This document shows positions 8,428 to 32,000 of a stretch of 32,000 nt of DNA, piece by piece; the first letter of the stretch is position 1, and each line of letters starts with the position of its first letter. Where the stretch lies: positions 4,440,001 to 4,472,000 of the forward strand of contig NC_009483.1 of NCBI RefSeq assembly GCF_000016745.1, read 5' to 3'. The stretch comes from Geotalea uraniireducens Rf4 (lineage in GTDB: Bacteria; Desulfobacterota; Desulfuromonadia; Geobacterales; Geobacteraceae). The notes below the pieces were generated by a model. It was given only the letters and a program-made list of their open reading frames with translations, did no database searches and was not told the DNA's origin. A program made the translations under genes and the position numbers.

Positions 8428-8476
8428 AAATTTCTTTGCCCTGACGACCTTATTTGTGTAGGTTTTACTCTGGTGG

Positions 8477-9385: not shown

Positions 9386-9484
9386 TTTTCAATAGCTCCT
9401 ATCAACGCAACATAAACTAAAAGGTTGTAGATTCTGTACCCTGGCAAGGAATCTAAAGCCAACTAATGATAGTATAAATTGTGT

Positions 9485-16629: not shown

Positions 16630-17369
16630 TTATTGTTTTCTTCATATTCCAAAGAAATAAGCAATTCACCGGCATTCTTTTTAAAGACATCTACATGCCT
16701 ATCAGTAAAATAATTTCGCCAGTCACCAACAACCCCTTTTCTTACGAAAGTATTATGTTTATATGCTTTACCTAGTTCTTTTTTCATGTTTTCTTTTGTA
16801 AATGCATTAACGCCTTTTATTATTGAATCATCGTCTTGCGAAACATTAATATGCCCGTAGATATCTTTTAATACAGAAAAAGCATCAACTATTAATTCTT
16901 CATACTTGAATGCTACAGTGTCGGTTTCCAGCCAACTCTCAACAAAAGCTGACCATTCCTTTGAAACCATATCGACGTAATCATCAAACGGAATGTTAAA
17001 ATCATCAATAATGCCATTTTTTACGCAAAAATCCTTTTCAAAGAAGTATTTTGAAACAATGACATCTCGGCCATCTCGTATTAAATGTACAAACTTTGCA
17101 GGAATCCTATGCCGGGCAGAATCCGGAAAGTCATGACTTTTGATAATACATGAGTCAGGCAAACCTAGAGAACTTGCATCAGTATACCAAGGGTGCTTAC
17201 TCGCATCATATCCATTTTCAGCTATATTTTCTGATATGTAAATGTCTCTTCTCGGCAGATTGAGACTATGGGCGAGCATACTGACAAGCCATGTACCGCC
17301 GGACTTCGGATATTCCACGACTATTATTTTGCCGACACCATGGTCATTACCAGTCATTTTTATTTTCAT
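16623..17369 (-). CDS. Sulfotransferase (PAPS-dependent family)
   Basis: The 5'-PSB-like loop is EYPKSGGTWLVSML, with IIKSHDF (candidate catalytic His), LIRDGRDVIVSKYF and RKGVVGDWRNYFT. The start is uncertain: candidate ATGs are at 17396, 17369 and 17357. The track start at 17471 would overlap wzt by 125 nt. Confidence 0.8.
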   Translation of the reverse strand: MKIKMTGNDHGVGKIIVVEYPKSGGTWLVSMLAHSLNLPRRDIYISENIAENGYDASKHPWYTDASSLGLPDSCIIKSHDFPDSARHRIPAKFVHLIRDGRDVIVSKYFFEKDFCVKNGIIDDFNIPFDDYVDMVSKEWSAFVESWLETDTVAFKYEELIVDAFSVLKDIYGHINVSQDDDSIIKGVNAFTKENMKKELGKAYKHNTFVRKGVVGDWRNYFTDRHVDVFKKNAGELLISLEYEENNKW

Positions 17370-19482: not shown

Positions 19483-19505
19483 TATTGTTTTCCGCGAAGT
19501 GGCGT

Positions 19506-19668
19506 TACGTGAGTAGTGAGTCGTGAGCAGTAAGTGGTAAAGGCAATTTCGTAAGTCGTAAATCGTAAGTGCCGTGAGTCGTTAATCGTAAGTAGTTAGG
19601 CGTCAATTCTCTTATTTCTTACTTCTCACGGTATTCTTCTCACGTCTCACGGCCGTAACAACTTACGT
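19506..19668. repeat. Heptamer-based palindromic array with no cargo gene: GTRAG-type units, then complementary CTYAC-type units
   Basis: The left arm is cgtgagt agtgagt cgtgagc agtaagt ... cgtaagt cgtaaat cgtaagt. The right arm is cttactt ctcacgg ... ctcacgt ctcacgg ... acttacg. It fills the spacer between mazF and wzt. Confidence 0.9.
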
Positions 19669-19679
19669 CGAAACAGCCC

Positions 19680-20009
19680 TTACAATTCCAGCCACGCCTT
19701 TAGTGAGGCATTGAGTCTCTGCAAGTCTTTTTTTGAAATGCTACCGACCTTCCGCCTTATCAATGCAATATCAACGAGAACACATCCTCGCTTTATCGCT
19801 GATTCTACATTCAACCCGGCCGCCTTCGAATCTTCGAGTACGAATTCTCCATTACAAAGATTACCGGTCTTGCTGGTGATCGGGACAAGGAATAGATCCG
19901 CATATTTCCCCTGGCCTGAGGCGACGATAACCGCCGGCCTGACCTTGGTAGTCTTCAAATCGGTAAAAGGATAGGGGAGTAGAATTATATCTCCTTTAGA
20001 GAAGTTCAT
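19680..20009 (-). CDS. mazF: Type II toxin, MazF/PemK family (mRNA interferase)
   Basis: MNFSKGDIILLPYPFTDLKTTKVRPAVIVAS is the typical PemK N-terminal pattern. It overlaps the upstream antitoxin gene by 14 nt. Confidence 0.8.
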   Translation of the reverse strand: MNFSKGDIILLPYPFTDLKTTKVRPAVIVASGQGKYADLFLVPITSKTGNLCNGEFVLEDSKAAGLNVESAIKRGCVLVDIALIRRKVGSISKKDLQRLNASLKAWLEL

Positions 20010-20244
20010 TGTAGATATCATCCTCTTCGTTATCCCAAACTTTTTTCAGAGATCTTTCGCTCAAGAGTTGCCAGTACTGTTTATCGGAAGCGGTGGAAGC
20101 ACCCCTTTCCTTCTGGTACTTCTGAGCAAGAAACTCGATAAAGTCCAGCGCTTCCCTGCGGGCAGCCGGAGGAAGAGAACTAATCTGCCTGTCAATACTG
20201 CCCACTGCCGATATTGGTTTTTTGATGCTTGTCGTTCCAGGCAT
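19996..20244 (-). CDS. Cognate antitoxin (small acidic C-terminus, DUF2281-like)
   Basis: MPGTTSIKKP...REALDFIEFLAQKYQ...WDNEEDDIYNELL. The RBS GAGGAG lies 7 nt upstream of the ATG at 20244. Its position directly 5' of mazF supports the call. Confidence 0.65.
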   Translation of the reverse strand: MPGTTSIKKPISAVGSIDRQISSLPPAARREALDFIEFLAQKYQKERGASTASDKQYWQLLSERSLKKVWDNEEDDIYNELL

Positions 20245-20267
20245 CGCGAATCTCCTCATTTCAAAAA

Positions 20268-20422
20268 CAGTGAGTCGTTAGTAATAAGTCGTAAGGGCTC
20301 ATTATTCACTTCTCACAGTTTACGGAATTTCTTCTCACTTCTCACTTCTCACTTCTCACTTCTCACTTCTCACTTCTCACTTCTCACTTCTCACTTCTCA
20401 CTTCTCACTTCTCACTTCTCAC
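20268..20422. repeat. Heptamer array: short GTRAG-type arm, then 13 perfect copies of CTTCTCA (20331-20421)
   Basis: I counted the units directly. The stop codon of the adjacent four-helix-bundle gene is supplied by the array (gtg aga agt gag aag TGA on the minus strand). Confidence 0.95.
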
Positions 20423-20761
20423 GGCTTTTACCGATTTGATCAATCCCAGCAGCATTTTCTTAACATCATACAATTTTTCAAGCTGGATTGTCTCTATAAA
20501 TTTCAGTCTTTGAACAAGAAGAAGTTGGGTCTCAAGTTCAGCAATAGACCCGAGGGCAATATAGAGAAACTGAATGAACTCCTTACCATAATTACGCCCC
20601 GCACCTTCAGCAATATTGGAAGGGATTGAAACGGCGGACCTTCGAATCTGACTCGTCAAGCCATAGAGCTCAGACTGGGGGAGTCGGTAAGTTATTTCAT
20701 AGACATCTACAACAAGGTCCATGGCTTTCTGCCAAACATGGAGATCCTTATGAGTCTTCAT
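20405..20761 (-). CDS. Four-helix-bundle protein (23S rRNA intervening-sequence protein / Avd-like family), copy 1
   Basis: [82 protein letters not shown] is the family signature. The start was chosen by analogy with copy 2 ([11 protein letters not shown]). Upstream ATGs at 20776 and 20803 are also possible. Confidence 0.85.
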
Positions 20762-20791
20762 CCCTTCATTGTTCATGTGGTTAGTTTTCTC

Positions 20792-20845
20792 CTCACAACT
20801 CACAACTCACAACTCACAACTCACAACTCACAACTCACAACTCAC
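20792..20845. repeat. Heptamer array: 7 perfect copies of CTCACAA plus one degenerate unit
   Basis: I counted units starting every 7 nt from 20792 to 20840. It lies immediately 5' (in gene orientation) of four-helix-bundle copy 1. Confidence 0.95.
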
Positions 20846-20898
20846 GATTCAAAGCCTATACAACTTACGACTCACTTCTAACGATTCACGGCCCTTAC
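20846..20898. repeat. 53-bp dispersed repeat, copy 1 (partner at 24334-24386)
   Basis: gattcaaagcctatacaacttacgactcacttctaacgattcacggcccttac versus gattcaaagccgttacaactcacaactcacttctaacgattcacagcctttac gives 47/53 identical by hand alignment, in the same orientation. Copy 1 overlaps the wzm stop codon. Confidence 0.85.
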
Positions 20899-21707
20899 AG
20901 CACGTCAGCAAAATGCGGCCTGAGCCTCCGGAAAACCACTGCCCCCAAAATGAAGATGCAGCCGGTTACAATCCAGTAGTAAAGGGTAAGCATGTAGTGC
21001 TGCTCCCAGAACCAGACCTTATAGATGAAACTTTCCCGGTAGCCCTCCACCAGGTAATAGACCGGGTTGAGCTTGATCAGGTTCGCGTATTTGGCCGGGA
21101 GGATCTTGGCGGACCAGAAGATGGGGGTGAGCCAGAAGGCGAACTGGAGGACCATGGCCACCAGCTGCCCCACATCGCGGAGGAAGACCACCAGTGACGA
21201 GGTGAGCCAGGAGAGCCCCAGCAGCAACACTATTGCAGCGAAGAGGTAGTAGAACACTTGGAGGTAGTGAAGGTCCGGCGGATAGCCGTAGAGGATAGAC
21301 ATGATGAAGATGATGGCGATGAAGAAGCTGTGGATAATGAGGGCCGAGAGGATCTTGACGATGGGGAGCATGCCGATGCTGAAGACCACCTTCTTCAGGA
21401 GGAAGCTGTTGTCGATGATGGACATGGTTGCGCTCTGCAGACACTCGCTGAAGAAGAACCAGGGGATGATGCCGGTCATCATCCAGAGGACGAAAGGGTA
21501 GTCTGCCTGGGGCTGGGACTTGAAGCCGACCTGGAAGACGAACCAGAGGATGACGATGTAGATGGTCGGGTGAACGAAGGCCCACAGTATCCCCAGGTAG
21601 GAGCCGAGGTACTTGGTCTTGAAGTCACGCTTGGCCAGCTCCAGGATCATGTGCCGACGGGACCAGAGCTCCGTGAGAAAATTGGAAAACATCTTCAATG
21701 CTTGCAT
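20895..21707 (-). CDS. wzm: O-antigen/polysaccharide ABC transporter permease (ABC-2 type)
   Basis: 270 aa with about 6 hydrophobic segments. The start RRHMILELAKRDFKTKYLGSYLGILWAFVHP is the conserved ABC-2/Wzm N-terminal motif. Confidence 0.9.
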   Translation of the reverse strand: MQALKMFSNFLTELWSRRHMILELAKRDFKTKYLGSYLGILWAFVHPTIYIVILWFVFQVGFKSQPQADYPFVLWMMTGIIPWFFFSECLQSATMSIIDNSFLLKKVVFSIGMLPIVKILSALIIHSFFIAIIFIMSILYGYPPDLHYLQVFYYLFAAIVLLLGLSWLTSSLVVFLRDVGQLVAMVLQFAFWLTPIFWSAKILPAKYANLIKLNPVYYLVEGYRESFIYKVWFWEQHYMLTLYYWIVTGCIFILGAVVFRRLRPHFADVL

Positions 21708-21759
21708 ATCATCTCCAAACTACAAATAACCTAACAACCTTAATCTCAAACCTTTTTAT

Positions 21760-21861
21760 GGGACGCAGATTTACAGGATGAACGCAGATTTAAAGCAACT
21801 CCGGGAGCAAAATCCTTTTTTGTTTTAAAATCATAGCCTTTTCTGCCTTGATCTGCGTCCC
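21760..21861. repeat. 11-bp perfect inverted repeat (gggacgcagat / atctgcgtccc) separated by 80 nt, in the wzm upstream spacer
   Basis: Read directly from the sequence. The left half belongs to a short motif (ttatgggacRCWGATYT) that recurs at 22531-22547. Confidence 0.7.
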
Positions 21862-21941
21862 ATCGAGGTTCTGACCCTGATGGCTTGTCGGATTTCATTC
21901 GTGTCCATTAGTGTCATTCGTGGCTAAATTCCAAGATTTGT

Positions 21942-22226
21942 TCATGCGGCCATCAGCCTTTCGACCTTCAGGTCTTTCCGTTTCTGCTCGGCCAGCGAAA
22001 GGTCGTACTGAACCTGCTGGGTCAACCAGCTTTCAGGTGTTGTATCGAATGCGATGGACAAGCGAATCGCCATCTCCGGGCTTATCCCGGCATGACCGTT
22101 CAATAGCTCGGAAAGGGCCTTGCGGGAAACTCCAAGGGCCTTTGCCGCCTGGGTGACGGAAATGCCGAGGGGCTTGATGCAAAGTTCCCGGATCACCTCT
22201 CCGGGATGGGGTGGGTTGTGCATCAT
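21942..22226 (-). CDS. higA: HigA-family antitoxin (XRE-type HTH)
   Basis: [54 protein letters not shown] is the canonical HigA pattern. Confidence 0.85.
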
Positions 22227-22238
22227 GGTATTTCTCCT

Positions 22239-22382
22239 TTAATGGTAATCCAGGTAGTCGACATCCAAAACGTCCTTCCCTTCAATCCTGAAAACGACTC
22301 GCCAGTTGCCACTGACATCCACAGACCAAAACCCGTCAAAATCTCCGCTCAGGCCATGCAACCTGAGGCCGGGAAGATTCAT
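22239..22382 (-). pseudogene. higB: N-terminally truncated HigB-like toxin (47 codons remain)
   Basis: The minus strand reads MNLPGLRLHGLSGDFDGFWSVDVSGNWRVVFRIEGKDVLDVDYLDYH*, which matches the C-terminal half of HigB killer proteins (...LPGxRLHxLKGDxxGxWSxxVxGNWRxxFxF...DYH). No matching N-terminal half appears in any frame upstream. The fragment is below the ORF-track size cutoff. Confidence 0.6.
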
Positions 22383-22630
22383 GTCTCTCGGTTAAATCGT
22401 AACCCGACACGTTACACATTGCAATGGTTATTTTCCTTCACTCTTCGCAGGTTTTACCGATCCTCGTATTGCCTTCAGTTCATGACTTTCAGTGTTAATC
22501 CGTGGCCAAATGAATAGCTTTCAATCTTTTTTTATGGGACACTGATCTTCATGATCCCCCTGTGTCAGGATAGTTGTCGCCTCTCTTCCGAACTTTTGTG
22601 TTAACCTGCGGGGCAACAGAGAGAGGGACC

Positions 22631-23155
22631 ATGGCCACCAAATATTCCGAAGAATTCAAGTCGAGCATTATTGCCAGGCTTCTGCCTCCGCATAATGTCA
22701 GCGTTCCTGACATGGTAAAAGAGACCGGGGTTCCTAAAGACACCCTGTACACTTGGAGGAATCAATACCGCAACAGGCAGGTTAATGCCGAGGCGAGCGG
22801 AAATCATCCGGCAGCCAGCCTAAACAACGAAGAGAAGTTGGCCATCGTCATCGAATCCGCCAGTCTCACTGAAGTTGAACTGGGTGAATATTGCCGACGC
22901 AAGGGACTCTACCCTGAGCAGATCGCCGGTTGGAAGAACGGCTTCGTACTCGGATCATCTGCCCCCCTCAACAAGGCCGAACGCGAGCAAATGAGGGAAC
23001 AGACAGCGACCATTAAGCAGCTTGAGAAAGAGCTGAACCGCAAGGATAAAGCATTGGCCGAGACTGCAGCCCTGCTGATTCTTCAAAAAAAGTTCCAGGC
23101 GCTCTGGGAGGAGCCCGAGGCAGAAAAATCGACCTCCCGGCGCGCCAAGAACTGA
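22631..23155 (+). CDS. IS3 transposase OrfA (HTH plus leucine-zipper part)
   Basis: MATKYSEEFKSSIIARLLPPHNVSVPDMVKETGVPKDTLYTWRNQY. The RBS gagagaggga lies before the ATG at 22631. The track start at 22574 is probably too early. Confidence 0.85.
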   Translation: MATKYSEEFKSSIIARLLPPHNVSVPDMVKETGVPKDTLYTWRNQYRNRQVNAEASGNHPAASLNNEEKLAIVIESASLTEVELGEYCRRKGLYPEQIAGWKNGFVLGSSAPLNKAEREQMREQTATIKQLEKELNRKDKALAETAALLILQKKFQALWEEPEAEKSTSRRAKN

Positions 23156-24192
23156 TTGCCCTGATAGACGAAGCCTGTGCCGGTGGTGCACGTCTGGGTA
23201 GGGCCTGCGAGGCTGTTCTTCTTTCGCCCCGCACCGTGCAACGTTGGCATCTTCCTGACGAAATACCCTCAGATGGGCGCAAGGCCGCGTCTCGCGATCG
23301 GGCACCGGCCAATAAGCTTTCTGAAACGGAGCGGGTCACAATCCTGGCGACTGCCAACCAGGAGAAATTCGCCAGCCTGCCGCCCAGCCAGATAGTTCCT
23401 AAATTGGCCGACGACGGGATCTTCCTCGCTTCTGAGTCAACCTTCTACCGAACCTTACGGGCAGAGAAGCAGCTGGCACACCGGGGCCGTACCAAGGCTG
23501 CAAGACACAAGCGCCCAGATGCCGTGCTGGCCACCGAGCCGAACCAACTCTGGAGCTGGGATATTACATACTTGAGCACTACCGTTAAGGGGCTGTACTT
23601 TTACCTCTACCTGATCATGGATGTCTTTAGCCGCAAGATCGTCGGTTGGGAAGTCTATGCGGAGGAATCCGCCGATCATGCCGCCATAACGTTGCGCAAG
23701 GCCTATCTGCGTGAAGGCGTCGCCGGTCGCACCCTGATACTTCACTCCGACAACGGCTCGCCCATGAAAGGCGCTACCATGTTGGGAACTATGCAGAAGC
23801 TTGGGGTAATGCCGTCCTTCAGTCGGCCCTCTGTCAGCAATGACAACCCATACTCAGAGTCACTGTTCAAAACCTTGAAGTATCACCCCGGCCTACCGGA
23901 GAAACCTTTCGATACGTTGGACGAGGCACGGCACTGGGTTGCCGGTTTCCAGCATTGGTACAACGAGGAACATCAGCACAGTGCCATAAAATTCGTAACG
24001 CCGGGTCAGCGCCACCGGGGCGATGACAAAGAGATACTCAACAAACGAGCGCTACTTTACGCGATGGCGAGGGCCGCAATGCCGGAACGATGGTCGGGTG
24101 CTTGCCGGAACTGGACTCGACCAGCAGAAGTTTCCTTGAACCCCCAAAAATCGGCTCAGAACGGTACGCCGTCTCAAGCCAGAGCAGCATAG
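22631..24192 (+). CDS. IS3 transposase OrfAB fusion, made by a programmed -1 frameshift
   Basis: After a -1 slip at A AAA AAG the reading continues ...QKKVPGALGGARGRKIDLPARQELIALIDEACAGGARLGRACEAVLLSPRTVQRWH... into the track ORF 23236-24192. The DDE residues are in WSWDITYL, LHSDNGSPM and NDNPYSESLFKTLK. Confidence 0.8.
23085..23092 (+). other. A7G slippery heptamer for -1 ribosomal frameshifting in the IS3 transposase
   Basis: The sequence is cttcAAAAAAAGttcc. The orfB frame is open upstream of this point, and the orfA stop lies 60 nt downstream. Confidence 0.75.
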
Positions 24193-24333
24193 AAGATGCG
24201 ACAACTTCCTTGACAACGACCGTGATGAACACAGATCTAAAAAAATCCTTAGATCATGGGGTTTGCCTTCACATCATGCCTTTTCAGTGTTAATCAATGT
24301 CCAAAATGCCTAAATCATGCTCCTTCCCCTTGC

Positions 24334-24386
24334 GATTCAAAGCCGTTACAACTCACAACTCACTTCTAACGATTCACAGCCTTTAC
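24334..24386. repeat. 53-bp dispersed repeat, copy 2 (partner at 20846-20898)
   Basis: See copy 1. More CTCAC-type units follow it (cactattcactgttcacaactcacgcctca). Confidence 0.85.
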
Positions 24387-24460
24387 AATCATATTCGGCC
24401 GACTGACAATTTTTATTGTTTTACCCCACTATTCACTGTTCACAACTCACGCCTCATGGC

Positions 24461-24502
24461 TTTTAATAAAAAAGAGGCGGCCACTTTCGTAACCGCCCCT
24501 CC
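24461..24502 (-). terminator. Probable Rho-independent terminator of the exported-protein gene
   Basis: The minus strand reads GGAGGGGCGG-uuacgaaagugg-CCGCCUC followed by UUUUUUAUUAAAA, 40 nt after the stop at 24541. Confidence 0.5.
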
Positions 24503-24540
24503 ACTTAACCATTCACAATAAACTATTCCAATCGGCAACT

Positions 24541-25227
24541 TTAATACAGAGTTCTCCACGCCGTGTTGCCACTGGCATCCTGTGCACATATTTCAAGAAT
24601 ATCCTTACCGGTGCTAGCATTCTTTGTAAACCAGAAGGTACCCCTATCATTTGCAGCAGTTGTATTGTCACATGTTGGCTTTGTAGCTGTTGTAGGATTG
24701 ACCCGAACACCTCCATTAACATCAAAGCGCTGGGTAGGTGTCTTTGTTCCTAACCCAAAGTTTCCTGCATAATCAAGCCTATACGCTTCTGTAAGCGTAA
24801 CGGCTCCTCCAACTGTTGCACCCTGATTTACAAATGCTCTAAATCCAACAGACCCAGACCCGAAAAAAATCGATTTCCCATCAGAGGACTTCTGCGTCCA
24901 AACATTGTTCTTAAGAACAGCACCAGAAGATATCCAAAAGTTATTTTCACCAACAGATGACAACCAGCCACCTGAATCAGCGCCATCATATGCAAAATGA
25001 AGAGTAGAGTCTGTCGCAGCAGCAGGTGTAGCAACGTCAACAGAATATTTGGGAGTATTCAAGTTAAATCCTGTCAACCCTGCATCAGTAACATCCATCG
25101 CATTGGCAACGTTTGTTGCGTGCTTCACAATCAACTTGTCCGCCGCACCAGCCACCGAAGCCATCATCAACCCCGAAACCGCAACCACCGAGGCCATTGC
25201 CAAAATTCTCTTACGCAAGCTTTTCAT
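24541..25227 (-). CDS. Exported protein of unknown function (signal peptide; tail-fibre-like GxGT..P...DV.G motifs)
   Basis: MKSLRKRILAMASVVAVSGLMMASVAGAADK is a signal peptide. The RBS AGGAGG lies 8 nt upstream of the ATG at 25227. The motif GNFGLGTKTPTQRFDVNGGVRV is present. Confidence 0.7.
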   Translation of the reverse strand: MKSLRKRILAMASVVAVSGLMMASVAGAADKLIVKHATNVANAMDVTDAGLTGFNLNTPKYSVDVATPAAATDSTLHFAYDGADSGGWLSSVGENNFWISSGAVLKNNVWTQKSSDGKSIFFGSGSVGFRAFVNQGATVGGAVTLTEAYRLDYAGNFGLGTKTPTQRFDVNGGVRVNPTTATKPTCDNTTAANDRGTFWFTKNASTGKDILEICAQDASGNTAWRTLY

Positions 25228-25574
25228 GTGTAAAACCTCCTGTTTATGTGTCTTTGACTTTGTCATTTATTCTGGGACTGGAGATCGGGAACAGATTACT
25301 GATCCTGCTTATTTCTAATCCCGGCTGCCTGGCCCCTGTCATTTAACCGCATGCTTCTCAATTTAGCGTAAAAACTTCTGCACCACCCAACGGGCCGCTC
25401 GGAGTTCTCAAGACCTTAATCATCTTGCCCCAACGCCTGATTTACAACTTTTATGAATGTACCATAAAACAATTATTAAAGAACTTCAACTATTTTTACT
25501 TTTAATCGTCATTTCAAAGATACAATTTTAACGGCACGACTAGAAATTATGCAAAATAGGGGCCAATTAAAAGC

Positions 25575-25778
25575 GGTCGATGGTCGGCGGTCGGTGGTTG
25601 ACTGCCGACTGCCGACTGCAGTTCTATGGTCGGCGGTCGGCGGTTTCACTGTTTACGGCATTCTTCTCACTTCTTACGGCTACGGCCATTAAAGTCGGTC
25701 GGCAGTCGACAGTCGACAGTCGACAGTCGACAGTCGATGGCTGAACTTCGGCCGATGGTCGATGGTCGGCGGACTGTG
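25575..25778. repeat. Composite heptamer array with no cargo gene: GGTCGRY units, TGCCGAC units, a CTYAC segment, 5 copies of CAGTCGA (25703-25737), then GGTCGRY units
   Basis: Read directly from the sequence. TGCCGAC/GACTGCC is complementary to GGCAGTC/CAGTCGA, which gives nested dyad symmetry. No ORF is present. Confidence 0.9.
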
Positions 25779-25809
25779 GTAAGAACGTCTCCCGTCGCTC
25801 TCTAATTCT

Positions 25810-25941
25810 TCACCGCTTCTTGATTTCCTCATACAACTGCGTCGCCGATTTCTGGCCAAAAAGCTCACTCTTGATCTTCAGGTAATCCTCTTTGTGTGCC
25901 ATGTTTTCCCTGATGAAAATAGCAGCCTTGGTAATGCCCAT
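25810..25941 (-). CDS. Small hypothetical ORF (43 aa), possibly the remnant of a gene disturbed by the adjacent IS
   Basis: MGITKAAIFIRENMAHKEDYLKIKSELFGQKSATQLYEEIKKR. The 93-aa track version reads through the IS terminal repeats and is not credible as drawn. Confidence 0.25.
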   Translation of the reverse strand: MGITKAAIFIRENMAHKEDYLKIKSELFGQKSATQLYEEIKKR

Positions 25942-26005
25942 CTGCTTAATAAGCGTCTGAACCGCCTCACTTCTTACTTCTTCGCTGGAAGGTACTATTT
26001 GACAA

Positions 26006-27400
26006 GTGTCAGGACATCGGTTACCCGGATGTGTCAAGACATCGGTTACCCTTAACGCCCTTTTTTGTGTCAAGACATCGGTTACCTTCATTAGAAATAT
26101 CAGCTACAATGTTCTCTGTGATTTCAACTTGAGGGGAGAACATCCGCATGGAAGAAGAACTCAGGAAACAAGCAGTCCAGCGCCATCTTGCAGGCGAATC
26201 ACCCAAGGCAGTCTATACAAGCCTTGATCGCTCCAAGAAGTGGTTTTTTAAGTGGTTGAACCGGTATCAATCTGGCGCGACTGACTGGTACAAGGAACAC
26301 TCAAGAGCGCCACTTAAAAGACCGTCTGAACTCAGCATCGTAGATAAGGAGATTATTGTCTCCACCAGAAACCGCCTGGACTCGTCACCATTTGCACAGA
26401 TTGGCGTTTCCGCTATCAAGTGGGAGCTGCATAAGCTGGGGTTACCGTTTCGCTCTGACAGCACCATTAACCGGACCCTGAAGCGGGAAGGACTCGTTAA
26501 AAAAAACGAGATATTCCCCCAAAGGGGTCGAGTACCCGTACTTTACCGAAGCCCTGTGCTGCAACAACATCCATCAGATGGATCTTGTTGGCCCCCGCTA
26601 CATCAAGAGTGACGGCAGATTTTACTCGATGAATGTGATTGATCTGTACAGCCATCGGGTCTTCATCGAATCAAATCGCACCAAGGAGGATGACAACATT
26701 GCACAGGGTTTGCTGCGCTGCTGGAAGTCAATGGGGCTTCCCGACTTCCTGCAAATGGACAATGAACTCAGTTTCCGTGGCAGTAACCGCTATCCGAGGT
26801 CACTTGGTCTGGTGCTGCGACTATGTCTCTACTTCGGCGTTCATCCTGTTTTTATCCCTGTTGCGGAACCGTGGCGCGATGGCGTAATAGAGAGCTTCAA
26901 CGATACCTATGACAAAAAGTTTTTTCGCCGCCAGTGGTTCACAAGCTATTCCATGCTCAAGCGGCAAAGCAAGAATTTCCAGCAGTTTCACAACAAGAAT
27001 CACCGTTACAGCTATCTCAAGGGGAAAACGCCACTGGAGGTTATTGAAGCTGACAAATTCAAGCCCTTGACGCTGGGGCCAAATACCAGGATGCCAAAAC
27101 TTGATTTTCTCCCGGACGGCACCATTTCGCTCATTAGATTTATCAGGAGCGATAGAACACTTAACATCTTTGGCGAAAAATTTGAGGTTTCAAAAGACCT
27201 CGTCTATTCATATGTGCGAGCCATGATCGTAACGGAAATTCACACGCTGCAAGTGTACCTGGGTGAAGACTTTGTTCAAAGCTTTGAGTACAGAATGCCT
27301 ACAGAGTTCAGCTCATGAAATAGTATGCATAATCAGGGGGTCGGGTAACCGATGTCCTGACACTTTTTAGAGTTAGGCTTGGGTAACCGATGTCCTGACA
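26006..27400 (+). mobile_element. IS element with an rve/DDE transposase (IS481-like) and multiple terminal repeat copies
   Basis: The 20-nt motif tgtcaRgacatcggttaccc occurs 3 times at the left end (26007, 26032, 26068). It occurs twice inverted at the right end (27343-27362, 27381-27400). An 8-bp direct repeat TTTGACAA flanks the element (25998-26005 and 27401-27408). Confidence 0.8.
26148..27318 (+). CDS. Transposase (HTH plus integrase-core DDE), split by a frameshift at an A8 run (26499-26506)
   Basis: Track ORFs 26148-26612 and 26578-27318 join if one A is removed: ...REGLVKKKTRYSPKGVEYPYFTEALCCNNIHQMDLVGPRYI... The DDE residues are in HQMDLVG, LQMDNELSF and RDGVIESFN. Confidence 0.75.
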
Positions 27401-27497
27401 TTTGACAACTATTAATTTCTTAACTGTCGGCATTGTCCGCCTCCTGTTGCAAAATGAGCATGGTGAATTCCACTGGGTTTATCGCCACAACGGCACC

Positions 27498-27553
27498 TAG
27501 GATCTGGGATCTGAAAAGTCGGGATCGGGGACCTGGGATCTGGGATCGGTAAC
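27498..27553. repeat. GGGATCT-type heptamer array (3' flank of four-helix-bundle copy 2)
   Basis: taggatctgggatctg...gggatcggggacctgggatctgggatcggtaac. The 20-mer ctgggatctgggatcggtaa (27533-27552) recurs exactly at 27999-28018. Confidence 0.95.
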
Positions 27554-27588
27554 TACTTGTTCTTTTTCCATGCGTATAGATTCTCTGT

Positions 27589-27945
27589 TCATAATTGCTT
27601 TGATTTGTAATGTTTTATAAGACCACTTATGAGCTTTTTGACTGTGACTATTTTAGCAAGTAATTGGTTAATTTCGCCAGAAAAATCCAAACGTTGGGCA
27701 ATAATTAATTGAGTCTCAGCCTCAGCAGCGGAACCCAAAGCAACATGTAAAAACTGAATAAACTCTTTTTCTGAATTCCTCGCCGCTCCTTCTGAGATAT
27801 TCGATGGAATCGAAACCGCGGCTCTTCTTAATTGGCTGGTTAAACCATAGAGTTCATCCTTCGGGAAATCCTTGGAAATCGCATAAACATCAACAACTAA
27901 ATCCATACTGATTTTCCATGCATCAAGCTCTTTATGGTCCTTCAT
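27589..27945 (-). CDS. Four-helix-bundle protein (23S rRNA IVS protein / Avd-like family), copy 2
   Basis: [86 protein letters not shown]. The RBS AAGGAGA lies 5 nt upstream. Confidence 0.9.
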
Positions 27946-27967
27946 TTCATCTCCTTGAAAGCGGTGA

Positions 27968-28018
27968 ACTGGAATCAGGGATCTGGAATCTAAAAAGGCT
28001 GGGATCTGGGATCGGTAA
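27968..28018. repeat. GGGATCT-type heptamer array (5' flank of copy 2), in direct orientation relative to 27498-27553
   Basis: ctggaatcagggatctggaatct...ctgggatctgggatcggtaa. Confidence 0.95.
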
Positions 28019-28023
28019 AAACT

Positions 28024-28247
28024 GTTCCCTGTTCCCTGTTCCCTGTTCCCTGTTCCCTGTTCCCCGTTCCCCGTTCCCCGTTCCCCGTTCCCCGTTCCCC
28101 GTTCCCCGTTCCCCGTTCCCCGTTCCCCGTTCCCCGTTCCCAGTTCCCAGTTCCCAGTTCCCAGTTCCCAGTTCCCAGTTCCCAGTTCCCAGTTCCCAGT
28201 TCCCAGTTCCCAGTTCCCAGTTCCCAGTTCCCAGTTCCCAGTCCCCA
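28024..28247. repeat. 32-unit heptamer array in three homogeneous blocks: (GTTCCCT)5 (GTTCCCC)11 (GTTCCCA)15 plus one GTCCCCA
   Basis: I counted the blocks unit by unit: 28024-28058, 28059-28135, 28136-28240. The reverse complement TGGGAAC differs from the TGGGATC unit of the neighbouring arrays at one position. Confidence 0.95.
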
Positions 28248-28251
28248 GCCT

Positions 28252-28584
28252 TTACGGCCTGAAATAATCGGGCTCATCATGGCCATCTACCCATATTGCC
28301 AGAAGATGGGCAATATCACCAGCCACCAGATAGCGCAAATGCAGCCGACGATAGGCAATTGGCATAACAGCCAGATGAAATGCAATCTCCCTGTCGCCAA
28401 TAACCTTTCTGCGGATCGGCCAGGCATGGGGATGATTATCGATTGTGGCAAGGATGGTGGTCATTGCCGACGGAAGGGCGATAAACGCCAGAGGGCTTGC
28501 CTTACGCAGATAACTGCTCAAATCAGAGTATGCCGCCTCGAATGTCGGTGTTACCCGTATTCTGGAATGACGTCTGGTCTTCAC
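28252..28584 (-). CDS. RelE/ParE-superfamily toxin
   Basis: 110 aa with the ParE-like pattern (...[20 protein letters not shown]...HPHAWPIRR...[21 protein letters not shown]). It has an ATGA overlap with the upstream RHH gene. The family call is by eye only. Confidence 0.55.
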
Positions 28585-28871
28585 GCATTCTTTCTCAGCA
28601 ATGAGTCAGACAGTGCCGCACCCTGGCGGGAATCCTCTTCTATCATGGATACAAGGCGGTCAGCCGGTCCGGACAGGCCTTTTTCGATATCACCGAGCGA
28701 CTGCATGGTCATAAGATCGGCGCGGCGTTCCCGCATATCTTCCTCAACAATTGCTCTGGCGCCGGCCTTGAAGAGCCATTGCGGTGTACGATCATGAACA
28801 CGGCAGTACTCATTGATGATGGCAGCCTCAGCCTCCTCAAGGGCAACATTGATCTGTAATCGCTTTTTCAC
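28581..28871 (-). CDS. Ribbon-helix-helix (CopG/ParD-like) antitoxin
   Basis: I prefer a GTG start at 28869-28871, preceded by TAGGAGG and a 6-nt spacer, giving (M)KKRLQINVALEEAEAAIINEYCRVHDRTP... (RHH strand-helix pattern). The track ATG at 28949 adds 26 implausible Cys-rich residues. Confidence 0.6.
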   Translation of the reverse strand: MKKRLQINVALEEAEAAIINEYCRVHDRTPQWLFKAGARAIVEEDMRERRADLMTMQSLGDIEKGLSGPADRLVSMIEEDSRQGAALSDSLLRKNA

Positions 28872-28953
28872 GGCACACCTCCTAGCATTGCAAGCAATTC
28901 TATCACAACCATGCAAGAAACACCAGAGATTGAGCAGTTCACTCGCCAATTTC

Positions 28954-29044
28954 CCCCAGTCCCCAGTCCCCAGTCCCCAGTCCCCAGTCCCCAGTCCCCA
29001 GTCCCCAGTCCCCAGTCCCCAGTTCCCGCCGACCGCCGACCGCC
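28954..29044. repeat. Heptamer array: (CCCCAGT)10, then TCCCGCC and (GACCGCC)2
   Basis: I counted CCCCAGT units from 28954 to 29023. The array lies between the cysNC stop (29047) and the RHH antitoxin start. Confidence 0.95.
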
Positions 29045-29046
29045 TT

Positions 29047-30894
29047 TCACAGCAACACCCCCATCTCCTCCATTTTCGCCACGATACGCCTGGCTGCCTC
29101 TTTCAGGTCATCAGACTCGAGAAAGTTCAGATCGGTATTCTCCGGCGCCTCCCCCTCGGCAAAGGCCATATGCACGGAAATGACCTGGTGGGGATGGACA
29201 AGTGTGCGGATGATCTGGTGATCGGCCCGGGCAAAGGTATTGGTGGTGGAAACCACGATCTGCCCCGCCCTGAGCAGGATCTGCGCCACTTCGCCGAAAC
29301 GGCGCACCATTTCGTCCTTATCCTCCTCGGTTACATCTAGCCCCAGGCCAAATAGCAGGTTTTTCCCGTCAAGGAGATACACCTGCCGACCGCTGTTGAA
29401 AAGCCGCCGCTCCAGGTGTCGGGCAAGGCGCGCCTTGCCGGTGCCGCTTTCGCCGGTGAAGAGGATGATGCCGGGATTGTGGCCGTTGCGCTGCACCCGT
29501 TCGCCGAGCTGAACCTCGCCGCGACGCCAGGCGATGTCGCGCTGCCTCGCTTCCCTGCGGAACGCTTCCTGCTCGTCGCTCAGCACTTCCGTGACTATGC
29601 CGCCGCCCCACACGTCATAACCGTCCACCACCACAAACCGGCCGGTGACGTCGCATTCTGCATAGCAGTCCAGGGCGATCGGCTTCCTGGTCCTGATGGT
29701 CACTTCCGCCACGTCGTTCAGGTCAACGCGGTCCTTTACCGCAACCGGGTCGAGGCTGGCGGCATCGATGATGCGATGGATCGTTTCCAGCTCCATCTCC
29801 ACCGCACAGGTTGCCAGCCTTAAGCCGTACCTGCGGCCGCGAACAAGGGGGTTCTTCCCCATCCAGAACAGGTTGGCGCGAAAACGGTCCGACACCTCCG
29901 GCGCCGACTCTTTTAACGAGGCGATCTCGCCCCGTTCGACGAAAATCTGCTCGTCGAGGGTAAAGCCGGTCGATTTGCCGGCAACTGCCGCCAATGGGAG
30001 ATGGGGAACATTGAAGGCCTCGATGGTCTTGACGACGGCGGTTTTATTGGAGGGTGAAAACACCACGGTATCGCCGACCCGCAGGACTCCGGCAGCAAGC
30101 CGGCCGGCAATGATGCGGCGGGCGTCGAACTTGTAGACATCCTGCACCGGAAAGCGGAGCGGCAGGTCTTCGCCGGTCGGCAGCTTCTCAAAGAGACCGA
30201 GGCTTTCCAATACCGTAGACCCCCGATACCATGGCATGGCATCACTGCGCCGCACCACGTTGTCGCCGTTCCTGGCGCTGGCTGGGATAAACTGCTGCGG
30301 CGAGACGCCCACCCCCTTCAGGAATGCCCCGTACTCTTCGACGATGGCGTTAAAGACCTGCTCGTCATAGCCGACCAAGTCCATCTTGTTGACGACCACC
30401 GCAATCTGCCGGATCCCCAGGAGACTGAGCATGTAGCCGTGGCGCCGCGACTGTTCGCGCACCCCTTCGGCAGCATCGATGATCAGCACCGCCGCCTCGG
30501 CCCTGGCAGCGCCCGAAATCATGTTTTTCAGGAACTCCTTATGCCCCGGCGCATCTATTATTATATACTGCCGGTTTTCCCAGGAAAAAAAGGTGCGGGC
30601 GGTATCGATGGTAATCCCCTGCTCCTGCTCTTCGAGAAATGCATCAAAGAGGAAGGCGTACTCAAATGCCTTTCCCTGTTGCTCGCAGATGGCGCGGACC
30701 TTCTCCAGCTGCCCATCGGGAAGGGAATCGGTGTCCGCGTAGATGCGCCCGAGAAGGGTGGACTTGCCGTGGTCCACGTGACCGACTATTACTACGGTGA
30801 AGGCGGTCGATGGTGGATGGTGGATGGTCGATGGTGGATGGTCGATAGTCGTTGGTGGATGGTCATTTGTTGATGGGCTCACGCTATTTTTCAT
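29047..30894 (-). CDS. cysNC: Sulfate adenylyltransferase subunit 1 (GTPase CysN) fused to a short, divergent APS-kinase-like domain
   Basis: The G-domain motifs are [18 protein letters not shown] and NKMD. The C-terminal 141 aa read [46 protein letters not shown]...RRFGEVAQ. The first roughly 30 codons are encoded by a heptamer array. Confidence 0.85.
30805..30874. repeat. GGTCGAT/GGTGGAT heptamer array (about 10 units) lying inside the 5' end of the cysNC reading frame
   Basis: ggtcgat ggtggat ggtggat ggtcgat ggtggat ggtcgat agtcgtt ggtggat ggtcatt tgttgat. On the minus strand it translates as ...[21 protein letters not shown]... Confidence 0.95.
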
Positions 30895-31255
30895 ATTTGA
30901 CTCTCAGTGATTTTATGAGCGCATTGAGCTGCTTGCGGATGACTACGGTTTCTCCGAGTAGTGTCTCAGCTTCAACTGCATACCCCAGTTTTTGTGCAAC
31001 AATCAATTGGGTCTCAAGTTCGGCAGCAGAACCACCGGCAATGGATAAGAATCGGATAAACTCCCGATTGCCTTGCCTTCCTGCCCCTTCGGCAATGTTC
31101 GAAGCGATTGAGACCACTGACCGCTTAATCTGGTCGGCCAGACCAAAGTGCTCATCCAGAGGGAATTTTTGAAGTATTCCATAAACAGACACTGCCAGAT
31201 TGACTGAACGCTGCCAGACATCAAGTTCCTTATAGTCCCTTATTTTCTCCACCAT
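30884..31255 (-). CDS. Four-helix-bundle protein (23S rRNA IVS protein / Avd-like family), copy 3
   Basis: [90 protein letters not shown]. Its last codons (aaa tAT GAA AAA TAG) contain the cysNC ATG. Confidence 0.9.
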
Positions 31256-31286
31256 TCACCGCCTTTACCTTTACCATACCTTTACA

Positions 31287-31413
31287 CATCATCTGTCATC
31301 CGTCATCCGCCATCCGCCATCCGCCACCGACCACCGACCACCGACCATCGACCACCGACCATCGACCGCCGTTCAGCCATCGACCGCCGTTCAGCCATCG
31401 ACCACCGACCGCC
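31287..31413. repeat. CATCCGC/CACCGAC/CATCGAC heptamer array (about 18 units), the inverted complement of the 30805-30874 array
   Basis: catccgc catccgc catccgc caccgac caccgac caccgac catcgac caccgac catcgac ... The reverse complement gives GGTCGAT/GGTCGGT/GGCGGAT units. It fills the cysD to four-helix-bundle spacer. Confidence 0.95.
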
Positions 31414-31415
31414 TC

Positions 31416-32000
31416 TCACATATACCCATCCTTCCTCAGCTTCTCCATCCCCCGGTCCGCATCCTGTGCCCTGCCGGAGCGTTCCGCAACCTTTGTGTTG
31501 CGCAGTTCCGCGATGATTTCATCCACATTCTTCGCCTTCGATTGAATGGTGCCGGTACAGGGCGCGCAACCGAGACTTCGATAGCGGGTCCCGTTCCCCT
31601 GGTCAAAATAGAGCGGGATGACCGGAATATTTTCTTTCTTGATGTATTCCCAGATATTGATCTCGGTCCAATCCAGGAGGGGATGGATCCGGACATGGGT
31701 GCCCGGCTCGAACCGGGTTTTGAACTGGTCCCACAACTCGGGTGGCTGCTCGCGGAAATCCCAGTCGTTGTTCTTGTCACGGGGAGAAAAATAACGCTCC
31801 TTTGCCCTGGTTCCTTCCTCATCGGAACGGACGCCGACAATGACCCCGTTGTACCCCTTATCGGCAAGGGTTCGGCTCAAGCCTTCGGTTTTAAGTGCGG
31901 TGCAGCACTCCATTCTACCCAGGGAAGGGTTCATGCCAGCCTCAAGGGCTTGCCGGTTCTGCCCCACCACCAGGGTCAAGCCCCATTCCTCGGCCAGCCT
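31416..32000 (-). CDS. cysD: Sulfate adenylyltransferase subunit 2 (CysD); the N-terminus runs off the right edge of the window
   Basis: ...[91 protein letters not shown]. The frame stays open to position 32000, so the track ATG at 31979 is internal. Confidence 0.9.

Follow-up and report, generated by a model that had tools for sequence, protein, structure and literature searches.

Heptanucleotide arrays bracket three PF05635 genes in Geotalea uraniireducens as parts of small operon-borne cassettes

We analyzed a stretch of 32,000 nt from Geotalea uraniireducens Rf4 (contig NC_009483.1, positions 4,440,001 to 4,472,000), referred to here as the window. Three ORFs of a single family had been predicted in it, and all three, each on the minus strand, matched both PF05635 (E about 1e-34 to 2e-38) and TIGR02436, identifying them as four-helix-bundle (4HB) genes (Table 1). 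Pairwise amino-acid identity among copies 1-3 is 49-61%, slightly higher than the 40-55% first estimated. The copy 1 protein also scored 168 bits with NF008911 and matched PDB 2GSC (E 9e-22); solved structures of 4HB relatives hold five chains per entry. For copy 3, comparison of the orthologues at cysD|cysN in L081, L082 and L083 gave a pN of 0.17-0.24 versus a pS of 0.77-0.87. With pN far below pS, the copy 3 protein is kept by purifying selection. A proposed connection to Avd and DGRs survives only as distant family kinship: the cutoff for NCBIfam Avd is 80, and the score here is 23.8. The main ORFs of the window were found to contain no reverse-transcriptase domain, and a DGR in the window was rejected.

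Table 1. Genes, arms and arrays of the three cassettes (window coordinates)
Feature	Coordinates	Strand	Description
Copy 1, PF05635/TIGR02436 4HB gene	20405..20761	-	118 aa; PF05635 E 1.9e-38
Cassette 1, 5' outer arm	20864..20889	-	degenerate heptamers GTGAATC GTTAGAA GTGAGTC GTAAG
Cassette 1, inner upstream array	20792..20845	-	(TTGTGAG)7.7 on coding strand = (CTCACAA)7.7; perfect, TRF 100% matches
Cassette 1, inner downstream array	20331..20422	-	(GTGAGAA)13.1 on coding strand = (CTTCTCA)13.1; TRF 100% matches, score 184
Cassette 1, 3' outer arm	20270..20295	-	CTTACGA-type, C-rich
Copy 2, PF05635 gene	27589..27945	-	118 aa; PF05635 E 4.5e-36; TIGR02436 match
Cassette 2, G-rich arm, 32 units	28024..28248	-	GGGAACT/G/A on coding strand; (GTTCCCN)32.1 by TRF
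Cassette 2, proximal C-type block	27999..28018	-	ACCGATCCCAGATCCCAG; upstream copy of exact 20-nt direct repeat
Cassette 2, distal C-rich arm	27500..27552	-	GATCCCA-type; TRF GGATCTG type 27500-27547; includes 27533-27552
Copy 3, PF05635 gene	30884..31255	-	123 aa; PF05635 E 1.1e-34; TIGR02436 match
Cassette 3, 5' arm	31289..31414	-	GGTCGGT/GGTCGAT/GGCGGAT heptamers and 18-mer variant; several TRF arrays 31289-31407
Cassette 3, 3' arm	30801..30862	-	ACCATCC/ACCATCG heptamers; TRF GGTCGAT-type array 30805-30864
cysNC start codon from cassette	30892..30894	-	11-nt overlap with copy 3 end; empty-site comparison L084-L087

TRF recovered every heptanucleotide array that had been described around these genes. 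Period-7 arrays occur at 6/6 junctions adjoining a 4HB gene versus 3/15 other junctions 30 nt or longer (Fisher p 0.0015), and so are not chance neighbours of the genes. The original prediction held further that each of the three ORFs is enclosed by complementary arrays. Flank duplex z-scores are -3.9, -1.9 and -6.85 for copies 1, 2 and 3, respectively. At copy 3 the claim stands: the arrays are truly inverted over 61 nt at 80% complementarity (5' arm segments 31310-31370 and 31395-31414), and in the whole-region MFE fold (z -5.7) the 3' arm pairs with the 5' arm. At copy 1 it fails for the arrays named. Both perfect arrays read GTGAGNN on the coding strand and are direct repeats with no mutual complementarity, so they were rejected as stem partners; the downstream one supplies the TGA stop and last five codons of copy 1. 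The bracketing stem of copy 1 is formed instead by the outer degenerate arms, an inverted pair of 26 nt with 85% complementarity that is paired in the MFE fold, and 0/200 shuffles gave as good a duplex. These arms begin ~5 nt past the wzm stop codon (20895-20897) and stop ~10 nt short of the start of a DUF2281 antitoxin gene (20259). At copy 2 the enclosing duplex is weak, with 7/200 shuffles as good. Its G-rich unit has one mismatch per unit with the complement of GATCCCA, and the two ends of the 32-unit G-array region pair mutually (27994-28011 with 28236-28253, overlapping the proximal C-type block), which leaves the copy 2 ORF outside that fold. The exact 20-nt direct repeat reported around this ORF is real. 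Each gene had been described as co-oriented with its neighbours; this does not hold for copy 2, which is followed downstream by a transposase gene in the opposite orientation.

The history of cassette 3 can be read from related genomes. Four Geotalea carry the cassette at the cysD|cysN junction. Their nearest relatives (L084-L087) lack it; there the two genes overlap via TGATG, with neither arrays nor hairpin. Copies 1 and 2 are absent at the matching junctions of three other Geotalea loci examined. The presence/absence polymorphism expected of such cassettes thus exists, and because there are empty sites, the cassettes were inserted. Insertion of cassette 3 replaced the ancestral TGATG overlap of cysD and cysN. 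Its 5' arm begins 1-2 nt past the cysD stop codon, and the end of copy 3, stop codon included, overlaps the start of cysNC. Reading frame and junction comparison revealed no alternative cysN start downstream of this codon. The cassette now supplies the cysN start, and its 3' arm is the CysN N-terminus, translated as an N-terminal extension of CysNC with HPPST-type repeats (about codons 11-31). Among the cysD|cysN orthologues, the arm pairs are GGTCGAT/ATCGACC, GGTGATT/AATCACC and GGTCGGC/GCCGACC; arm units drift between orthologues while the two arms remain complementary. L082 has GGTGGAT opposite a short ATCGACC/AACGACC arm, to which it is only partly complementary.

We similarly surveyed 78 homologous loci from many phyla, picked by protein similarity alone. 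Up to 100 nt from the ORF, period-7 coverage was 19.5%, versus 0.58% at distances above 500 nt, an ~34-fold difference, and 59% of 4HB-adjoining junctions carried an array versus 16.6% of others (odds ratio 7.4, p 2e-19). This flank signal is specific to period 7. The length of gene-adjoining arrays has its mode at exactly 30 nt (4.3 units), well past which the Geotalea arrays have expanded. In 44/82 loci, five Geotalea cassettes included, the two flanks were reverse-complementary, with scores exceeding those of 99% of permuted flank pairs. Flank duplex energies were also better than those of controls (p 5e-21 and 9e-10). Roughly one locus in two had no significant inverted pair; some of these have arrays in direct orientation, or each flank forms a hairpin of its own. 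The arms are complementary at a median of 84%, the median cassette length is 490 nt, and further inverted pairs ~400 nt apart proved to enclose three more 4HB paralogues. In 58/73 loci the genes on both sides share the orientation of the 4HB gene, versus a baseline of 61% (p 7e-4), with median gaps of 70 and 51 nt between the 4HB gene and its neighbours. Viral or proviral contigs and plasmids carry the same architecture, and the idea of an IVS-like cassette family in mRNA operons is supported.

These cassettes have a defined order: a G-rich 5' heptamer arm (typically 30 nt), a spacer of ~20 nt, the ORF, a spacer of ~15 nt and a complementary 3' arm. The ORF is a promoterless PF05635 gene of ~120 codons, co-oriented with the neighbour genes, and the arms fill the entire gap up to those genes. 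The G-rich arm comes first in 39/42 cases, a polarity unchanged by reverse complementation, which therefore cannot tell which strand acts. In two Bacteroidales genomes (L012 and L017), homology at 84% identity is confined to the arms, the ORF and a short tail, with unrelated flanks on either side; a cassette with its arms can move, recurring at unrelated loci. G·U-type mismatches between arms are not in excess over A·C-type (62 versus 75) and most mismatches are of transversion type (191); the mismatches thus bear no mark of selection for pairing in the sense RNA.

We consider it reasonably probable that all three genes are carried as cargo by small selfish cassettes riding host operons, elements of one kind with the ORF-bearing IVSs of 23S rRNA yet situated amid protein-coding genes. 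In Coxiella, the rRNA IVS spans 428 nt and its stem of 28 bp is cleaved by RNase III (PMC4990558); these dimensions are similar to the median length and modal array of the cassettes. PF05635 genes wedged within cas operons have been noted before (PMC3936711). In the polycistronic transcript, the arms would pair into a stem of ~30 bp or more with the ORF in its loop. On the model of rRNA IVSs and mRNA hairpin repeats, this stem may be an RNase III substrate or a structural insulator; an insulator would tie translation of the ORF and the downstream gene to that of the upstream gene. Nucleic acid is the presumed target of the pentameric Avd-related protein, which would serve to maintain or spread the element. 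Against this reading are the imperfect complementarity of the arms (only ~84%), their lack of a G·U excess, the loci with no significant inverted pair, the weak enclosing stem of copy 2, the heptamer-armed hairpins that hold no ORF, and the absence of a visible target-site duplication at cysD|cysN. Moreover, the 3' arm of cassette 3 lies within the cysN frame, past its only usable start, so excision of the stem would decapitate the cysN message. An RNase III cut at copy 3, if it occurs, would leave the start codon of cysN detached from the remainder of the gene.

The arms could instead work in DNA, as terminal inverted repeats made of tandem binding sites (compare the ends of Tn7 and Mu), with the RNA stem a by-product; we regard this as unlikely, albeit the strongest competitor. 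A putative binder, the 4HB pentamer or a host enzyme, would then move, invert or maintain the cassette. Joint travel of arms and ORF between unrelated flanks in L012 and L017, the arm length fixed near 30 nt, the missing G·U wobble signature and the exact direct repeat around the copy 2 ORF all agree with this account. Polarity symmetric under reverse complementation is expected of transposon ends, the many ORF-less copies with the same arms in a genome resemble MITEs beside an autonomous element, and the ~4-5 units per arm sit well with the five chains in structures of relatives. Yet strong conservation of the protein contrasts with arm units that differ wholly between genomes and whose similarity barely follows that of the proteins (rho 0.09), and the 120-aa helical bundle has no known nuclease or recombinase motif. 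Comparison of occupied and empty cysD|cysN junctions revealed no target-site duplication, and the strong operon co-orientation points to a dependence on host transcription that a purely DNA account does not need. Slightly less likely again is that the hairpin came first, as a free-standing intergenic element of the REP, MITE or Correia kind serving a role of its own, such as mRNA punctuation or stabilisation, and that PF05635 ORFs are later passengers, either captured by hairpin loops or arrays or inserting there by preference. The same genomes do contain ORF-less heptamer-armed hairpins of the same unit, tight between co-oriented genes, whose loops (12-130 nt) are unrelated to and not derived from the ORF, so the arms may be an independent element. 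Arrays at 16.6% of non-4HB junctions fit as well, as do ~70 inverted GGGAATC pairs in Xanthomonas (PMC4692102) and similar arms around ORFs unrelated at the nucleotide level in L041 and L024. In W2, L051 and L091 the arrays are direct or follow the order G-arm, C-arm, ORF, C-arm, and this order fits insertion into one arm. But neither hairpin nor array is present at the empty cysD|cysN site, arms and ORF form one homology block in L012/L017, and arrays are far denser at 4HB genes than in the rest of the same loci.

Beside the selfish-cassette reading, incidental co-occurrence is close to refuted and seems to us very improbable. Here the arrays would be lineage-specific simple-sequence repeats, like cyanobacterial STRRs, in variable intergenic regions where small accessory genes land. 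TRF does find arrays at non-4HB junctions of the window (19508-19593, 25573-25768 and 28954-29044), almost all junctions within the cysC-cysD-cysN-wzm operon carry them in other Geotalea, and long perfect arrays such as (GTGGATG)12.6 and (GGGAACN)32 reflect recent slippage independent of any stem. However, the enrichment, period-7 specificity and flank complementarity replicate in the 78 loci and in a second collection, and the arms covary across orthologues. At many loci, L041, L043, L063 and L080 among them, the pair flanking the gene are the sole arrays in 20 kb.

The three four-helix-bundle (4HB) genes are real, all lie on the minus strand, and each matches PF05635 (E 1e-35 to 2e-38; 119–131 bits versus a cutoff of 33.8). 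They also score 123–129 bits with the TIGR02436 profile (cutoff 24) and all match subfamily NF008911 in the profile search. Their paralogy was borne out, although pairwise amino-acid identity is 49–61% rather than the 40–55% first estimated. Residues G34, R41, S45, N49, E52 and G53 are invariant across the copies, which carry the motif GxxRxxxSxxxNxxE quoted as conserved among Xcc0516 homologues (PMC3936711). By sequence comparison, copy 1 matches the solved protein XCC0516 (PDB 2GSC, five chains; E 9e-22), and there is a further sequence match to PDB 2RLD (E 2e-5). The relationship to Avd, which diversity-generating retroelements (DGRs) encode as an accessory protein, is distant: E values were 0.018 for Pfam bAvd (16 bits, cutoff 40) and 4e-5 for the NCBIfam Avd equivalog NF033474 (23.8 and 18.8 bits versus a cutoff of 80). 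Known Avd structures are small, basic, pentameric four-helix bundles, as PF05635 proteins probably are too. Because the main ORFs of the window showed no reverse-transcriptase (RVT) domain, the window is not a DGR; no other DGR sign, such as a template/variable repeat pair, was seen in it, and DGRs are not known to have heptamer arms.

In the direction of transcription on the minus strand, the locus reads cysD, copy 3, cysNC, two unknown ORFs and copy 2, then two insertion sequences, a HigA-like gene, other small ORFs, wzm and copy 1, followed by a DUF2281/PemK toxin–antitoxin pair, a wzt–sulfotransferase fusion and finally sulfotransferase, radical-SAM, methyltransferase and glycosyltransferase genes. 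These genes form a locus for a polysaccharide that is probably sulfated. Wzt combines an ABC ATPase, a Wzt_C carbohydrate-binding domain and a C-terminal sulfotransferase domain in a single fusion; its counterpart in Geotalea sp. SG265 has a methyltransferase domain in place of the last. One of the two insertion sequences between wzm and cysNC is IS3-type (HTH_Tnp_1 + rve), and the other (HTH_23 + rve) seems to be broken up between two ORFs that overlap. The other Geotalea have wzm directly beside cysNC. Two overlapping small ORFs near copy 2 (122 and 110 aa) have no match in Pfam or NCBIfam and may be a further inserted module, perhaps a novel toxin–antitoxin pair; on the coding strand, (ACTGGGG)10.6 precedes them and (GGGAACN)32 follows. 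The unit of the former array, CCCCAGT, we take to be the classical STRR1 unit. An Rfam search of positions 19000–32000 gave no hit, only two sub-threshold chance matches, and searches with PADLOC and against a phage collection gave no match.

Positions of genes, arrays and paired segments in the window and in homologous loci (L-numbers)
Feature	Sequence	Position	Strand
Wzt fusion	window	17347-19482	minus
CTTACGA-type arrays	window	19508-19593	
DUF2281/PemK pair	window	19680-20259	minus
Copy 1, 3' outer arm	window	20270-20295	
Copy 1 ORF	window	20405-20761	minus
Copy 1, 5' outer arm	window	20864-20889	
Insertion sequence	window	22574-24192	plus
Cluster of five heptamer arrays	window	25573-25768	
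Insertion sequence	window	26148-27318	plus
Copy 2 ORF	window	27589-27945	minus
(GGGAACN)32 array	window	28024-28248	
Overlapping small ORFs	window	28252-28949	
(ACTGGGG)10.6 array	window	28954-29044	
CCCCAGT units	window	28954-29027	
Copy 3, far end of 3' arm	window	30796-30817	
Start of cysNC frame with heptamer array	window	30801-30894	minus
Copy 3 ORF	window	30884-31255	minus
Copy 3 ribosome-binding/start region	window	31248-31269	
Hairpins around PDDEXK_3 gene	L083 (Geotalea)	7948-9416	
Cassette with 8-nt units	L091 (Gemmatirosa)	2335-2879	
Lone G-rich arm	L036	12316-12353	
Lone C-rich arm	L036	15633-15662	
Cassette and signal-peptide region	L027 (Acutalibacteraceae)	1-580	
Cassette and signal-peptide region	L030 (Acutalibacteraceae)	997-1574	

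Every array of the original prediction was recovered with TRF, and the exact 20-nt direct repeat around copy 2 is real; it could be a target-site duplication. The arrays do flank each 4HB gene, with a period-7 array at 6/6 4HB junctions versus 3/15 other junctions (p 0.0015). The further claim that complementary arrays enclose every ORF was right for copy 3, where the arms are inverted and 80% complementary over 61 nt. Here the flank duplex (pairing energy of the gene's two flanks versus shuffles, negative values being more stable) gave z −6.85, and the whole-region MFE gave z −5.7. At copy 1, the perfect arrays that had been named read, on the coding strand, GTGAGTT before the ORF and GTGAGAA after it; they are direct repeats and non-complementary. 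Its bracketing stem is formed instead by outer degenerate heptamer arms (26 nt, 85% complementary; flank-duplex z −3.9), which begin a few bases past the wzm stop codon and finish just before the next gene. Copy 2, arranged as G-rich array (32 units), short C-type block, ORF and C-rich arm, has a weak enclosing duplex (z −1.9; 7 of 200 shuffles were equally good), and the two ends of its G-array region pair together in a fold that puts the ORF outside. Whole-region MFE z values for copies 1 and 2 (−2.2 and −2.35; 20 shuffles) are too coarse, so the flank-duplex tests were used.

We assembled a diverse set of 80 loci from the matches listed, one genome per species, picked by protein similarity alone; no Geotalea locus was among the matches listed in the species-level scan. 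These loci come from Bacteroidota, Ignavibacteriales/Melioribacteraceae, the green sulfur bacterium Prosthecochloris, Nitrospirae-group bacteria, Clostridia, Selenomonadales, Planctomycetes, Verrucomicrobiota, Acidobacteriota, Cloacimonadota, Fibrobacter, beta-, gamma-, delta- and zeta-proteobacteria, Gastranaerophilales and one CPR bacterium. Across all loci, 308 of the 481 tandem arrays with at least three copies had period 7, and period-7 coverage was 19.5% within 100 nt either side of the ORF versus 0.58% beyond 500 nt. Within these loci an array was present at 59% of the junctions adjoining a 4HB gene and at 16.6% of the remaining ones (odds ratio 7.4, p 2e-19). Period 7 alone was raised, with a flank autocorrelation of 0.65 versus a background of ∼0.40 and 0.39–0.45 for other periods in the flanks.

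Gene-adjacent arrays most often measure exactly 30 nt, or 4.3 units, which is also their median length. In 44 of the 82 loci taken from the diverse set and five Geotalea cassettes, the flanks are reverse-complementary (>99th percentile of permuted pairs), with arm pairs such as TGTGAAT/ATTCACA, AAGGGAC/GTCCCTT and AGACACA/TGTGTCT; at the median, the arms are 84% complementary and the cassettes 490 nt long. The arms abut the neighboring genes (median gap 70 nt upstream and 51 nt downstream), and both neighbors are co-oriented with the 4HB gene in 58/73 loci versus a 61% baseline. Other inverted array pairs in the same loci, ∼400 nt apart, enclose three more 4HB paralogues. About half of the loci are without a clear inverted pair, some having direct arrays or one hairpin per side. 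The architecture was found again in IMG/VR contigs and on plasmids, where a Geminocystis cassette sits between parA-like and parB genes; a Nostoc cassette from the plasmid search is split by an ISL3 element. The genomes of cassette-bearing loci also contain ORF-less hairpins with identical arms, an identical inner extension and unrelated loops. We rejected the idea that these are deletion derivatives of cassettes, as the loops do not align to the cassette.

The presence/absence difference predicted for orthologous junctions was found at cysD|cysN, which is filled in four Geotalea (G. toluenoxydans, Geotalea sp. SG265, a related MAG and the window) and empty in L084–L087, from the nearest relatives outside the group and Geomonas. 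At empty sites cysD and cysN overlap as TGATG with no array, and CysN has no N-terminal extension; CysN of the nearest outside relatives is 80% identical. Each of the four occupied species has a 5' arm that starts directly past the cysD stop codon (AGGCGGTG...), a new cysN start codon that overlaps the 4HB stop codon, and a translated 3' arm that forms the new CysN N-terminus, with no alternative cysN start downstream. Arm units vary by species and pair within each (GGTCGAT/ATCGACC, GGTGATT/AATCACC and GGTCGGC/GCCGACC), although one arm is coding sequence; in the fourth species (L082), GGTGGAT/ATCGACC is only partly complementary. No target-site duplication is visible at cysD|cysN. Orthologous 4HB genes at this junction have pN of 0.17–0.24 versus a saturated pS of 0.77–0.87, indicating that the protein is maintained. 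The heptamer array in the window's cysNC frame lies between the start codon and the GTPase P-loop, and adding or losing units in a number not divisible by three would shift the frame; the array could be a slippage on/off switch of PAPS synthesis, and hence of polysaccharide sulfation.

In the other occupied Geotalea loci (L081–L083), the matching junctions lack any equivalent of copies 1 and 2. In those three loci the wzm–wzt gap holds an RHH/ParE pair, a maturase fragment and a PDDEXK_3 gene; since its small genes differ by Geotalea species, the gap is an insertion hot spot. Two Bacteroidales loci (L012 and L017) are 84% identical in nucleotide sequence across precisely the arms, the ORF and a tail of 45 nt reaching the next gene's ATG, and their flanks are unrelated. 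Cassette and arms therefore travel together. Two Acutalibacteraceae loci share a 97% identical cassette together with the signal-peptide region of the next gene, past which the downstream genes diverge completely. This cassette may be a recombination boundary for variable secreted proteins.

ORF-bearing intervening sequences (IVSs) in 23S rRNA, known from Leptospira, Coxiella burnetii (S23p) and CPR rRNA genes (PMC4990558, PMC11270868), are the closest parallel in several respects. Both carry PF05635 cargo; both have terminal inverted repeats that can form a stem of ∼28–30 bp around the ORF, a feature seen at copies 1 and 3 and weak at copy 2. The Coxiella IVS measures 428–444 nt, near the cassette median, and its 28-bp stem is cut by RNase III (PMC4990558). 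IVSs and cassettes alike are sporadically distributed, consistent with horizontal spread, and neither destroys the function of the host transcript (PMC4990558, PMC11270868, for IVSs). They differ in site: IVSs occupy rRNA helix 9, 25 or 45, whereas cassettes lie at mRNA operon junctions, the flanking genes in the window being wzm, the DUF2281 antitoxin gene, cysD and cysNC. The universal 23S motifs searched for were absent near the cassette in all 80 loci, none of which lies in an rRNA gene. They differ also in that the cassette arms are tandem heptamers (read for these cassettes alone), that a cassette can provide its downstream neighbor with a start codon and an N-terminus, and that the ORF is under purifying selection here, whereas the Coxiella IVS ORF is decaying and untranslated (PMC4990558). 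Given the match in cargo, size, stem length and sporadic distribution, the simplest reading is that cassettes and rRNA IVSs are one element class whose usual home is the operon junction. The original prediction of an IVS-like cassette in mRNA operons is thus well supported for architecture and evolution; RNase III excision, shown for IVSs, is putative in cassettes.

Tandem 7-nt intergenic units have been described in several bacteria, as cyanobacterial STRR/LSSR, Xanthomonas GGGAATC, Beggiatoaceae TAACTGA and Geobacter metallireducens elements. The arrays recovered here by TRF are of this kind, and known arrays and ours are often directly beside start or stop codons. About 70 Xanthomonas sites are convergent inverted pairs (PMC4692102), the G. 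metallireducens elements form paired sites on opposite strands (PMC2700814), heptamer arrays are described in Beggiatoaceae (PMC4679880), and for Nostoc an unknown array-binding partner was postulated (bioRxiv 10.1101/2022.06.06.494920); all four papers are silent on PF05635 and on an IVS-like cassette. The hosts of STRR arrays are heterocystous cyanobacteria, whereas CysNC of the window is 100% identical to the Geotalea uraniireducens protein, which rules out a cyanobacterial origin of the window in spite of its CCCCAGT array. Unlike the known arrays, those described here are arms of defined length around one gene family in many phyla. Conversely, PF05635 genes have been reported from rRNA insertions (PMC11270868) and as intruders among the genes of cas operons (PMC3936711), in both cases with heptamer arms unmentioned. 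No paper joining PF05635 to heptamer arrays was found in open-access full text; an earlier mention elsewhere is possible.

Correia/NEMIS elements of Neisseria and REP/BIME elements of enterobacteria, the latter associated with RAYT transposases, are short inverted-repeat elements between co-transcribed genes that form mRNA hairpins. The likeness lies in MITE/REP hairpins inserted in operons, with many non-coding copies beside a rarer coding partner. Correia hairpins are reported to be cut by RNase III and to alter flanking-gene expression, and the Y1 transposase that mobilizes REPs is encoded at a separate genomic site. The inverted repeats of Correia and REP elements are unique sequence rather than tandem heptamers, and they enclose no PF05635 ORF. 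Unlike a non-coding MITE, the cassette has an ORF under purifying selection, although ORF-less relatives with the same arms occur in other genomes.

If the stem acts in RNA, the cassette could be excised or could control its neighbors. At copy 3, an RNase III cut would remove the cysN start codon and decapitate the cysN message. Arm mismatches, a test for pairing in sense RNA, showed no excess of G·U-type over A·C-type (62 versus 75); most are transversion-type, probably because repeat units shuffle within arrays. The G-rich arm comes first in 39/42 loci, a polarity that is the same after reverse complementation and so carries no strand information. Given the lack of G·U excess, the strand-symmetric polarity and the predicted loss of the cysN start, a stem acting as translation coupler or insulator is at least as plausible as the putative excision. 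Between the copy 3 ribosome-binding/start region and the far end of its 3' arm, complementarity is 86% across 22 nt, and this pairing could be an alternative fold masking the 4HB start codon.

Alternatively, the arms could act on DNA, as ends like those of a transposon, with binding sites in tandem. As a check on sequence-specific binding, heptamer units were compared with protein sequences; the two covaried very weakly (rho 0.09). On a further reading, which we consider rather unlikely, PF05635 with its tandem-heptamer arms would be one ancient self-propagating element class across phyla, with autonomous cassettes encoding a pentamer that binds the 4–5 units of each arm, ORF-less hairpins as non-autonomous copies, and rRNA IVSs, many heptanucleotide arrays (STRR, LSSR, Xanthomonas GGGAATC pairs) and Avd all derived from this common source.

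The observation, as corrected, is real, and it bears on a very common, uncharacterized small family, the PF05635/TIGR02436 'four helix bundle protein' (7,971 matches at E <1e-10 among 8,000 candidates scored). Its only studied setting is the rRNA IVS, for which >25 years have brought no agreed origin or function (PMC4990558). Should rRNA IVSs be operon-type cassettes that on rare occasions lodge in rRNA, the question becomes testable in tractable bacteria with normal-gene read-outs. The cassettes also offer a concrete genetic partner for heptanucleotide arrays, whose origin or binding factor is at issue in cyanobacteria, Xanthomonas, Beggiatoaceae and Geobacter, and they rewrite the start codons and N-termini of neighbors, as for cysN. 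Associations of PF05635 with host operons such as cas loci (PMC3936711) may be spurious and cassette-made. Cassettes may also break short-read assemblies, since many close homologues lie on contigs of only 1–4 kb.

Array organization varies further. In some genomes 8-nt units replace heptamers: the Gemmatirosa cassette has GAGGGCAG/CTGCCCTC around its 4HB gene, arranged as G-arm, C-arm, ORF, C-arm, like copy 2. In Geotalea locus L083, hairpins of CGCAGAGC/TCTCTGCG (3 units each) lie on both sides of a PDDEXK_3 gene. Locus L036 has a lone G-rich and a lone C-rich arm of one repeat family, 3.3 kb apart, which may be able to bracket far larger cargo. Geotalea arrays are unusually expanded and present also at many junctions that adjoin no 4HB gene. 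In the window, the CTTACGA-type arrays between wzt and the DUF2281/PemK pair have the unit type of the 3' outer arm of cassette 1. Five distinct short heptamer arrays (GCGGTCG, GACTGCC, GGTCGGC, GTCGACA and CGATGGT) cluster in a 543-nt gap between two family-less ORFs, with no 4HB gene nearby.
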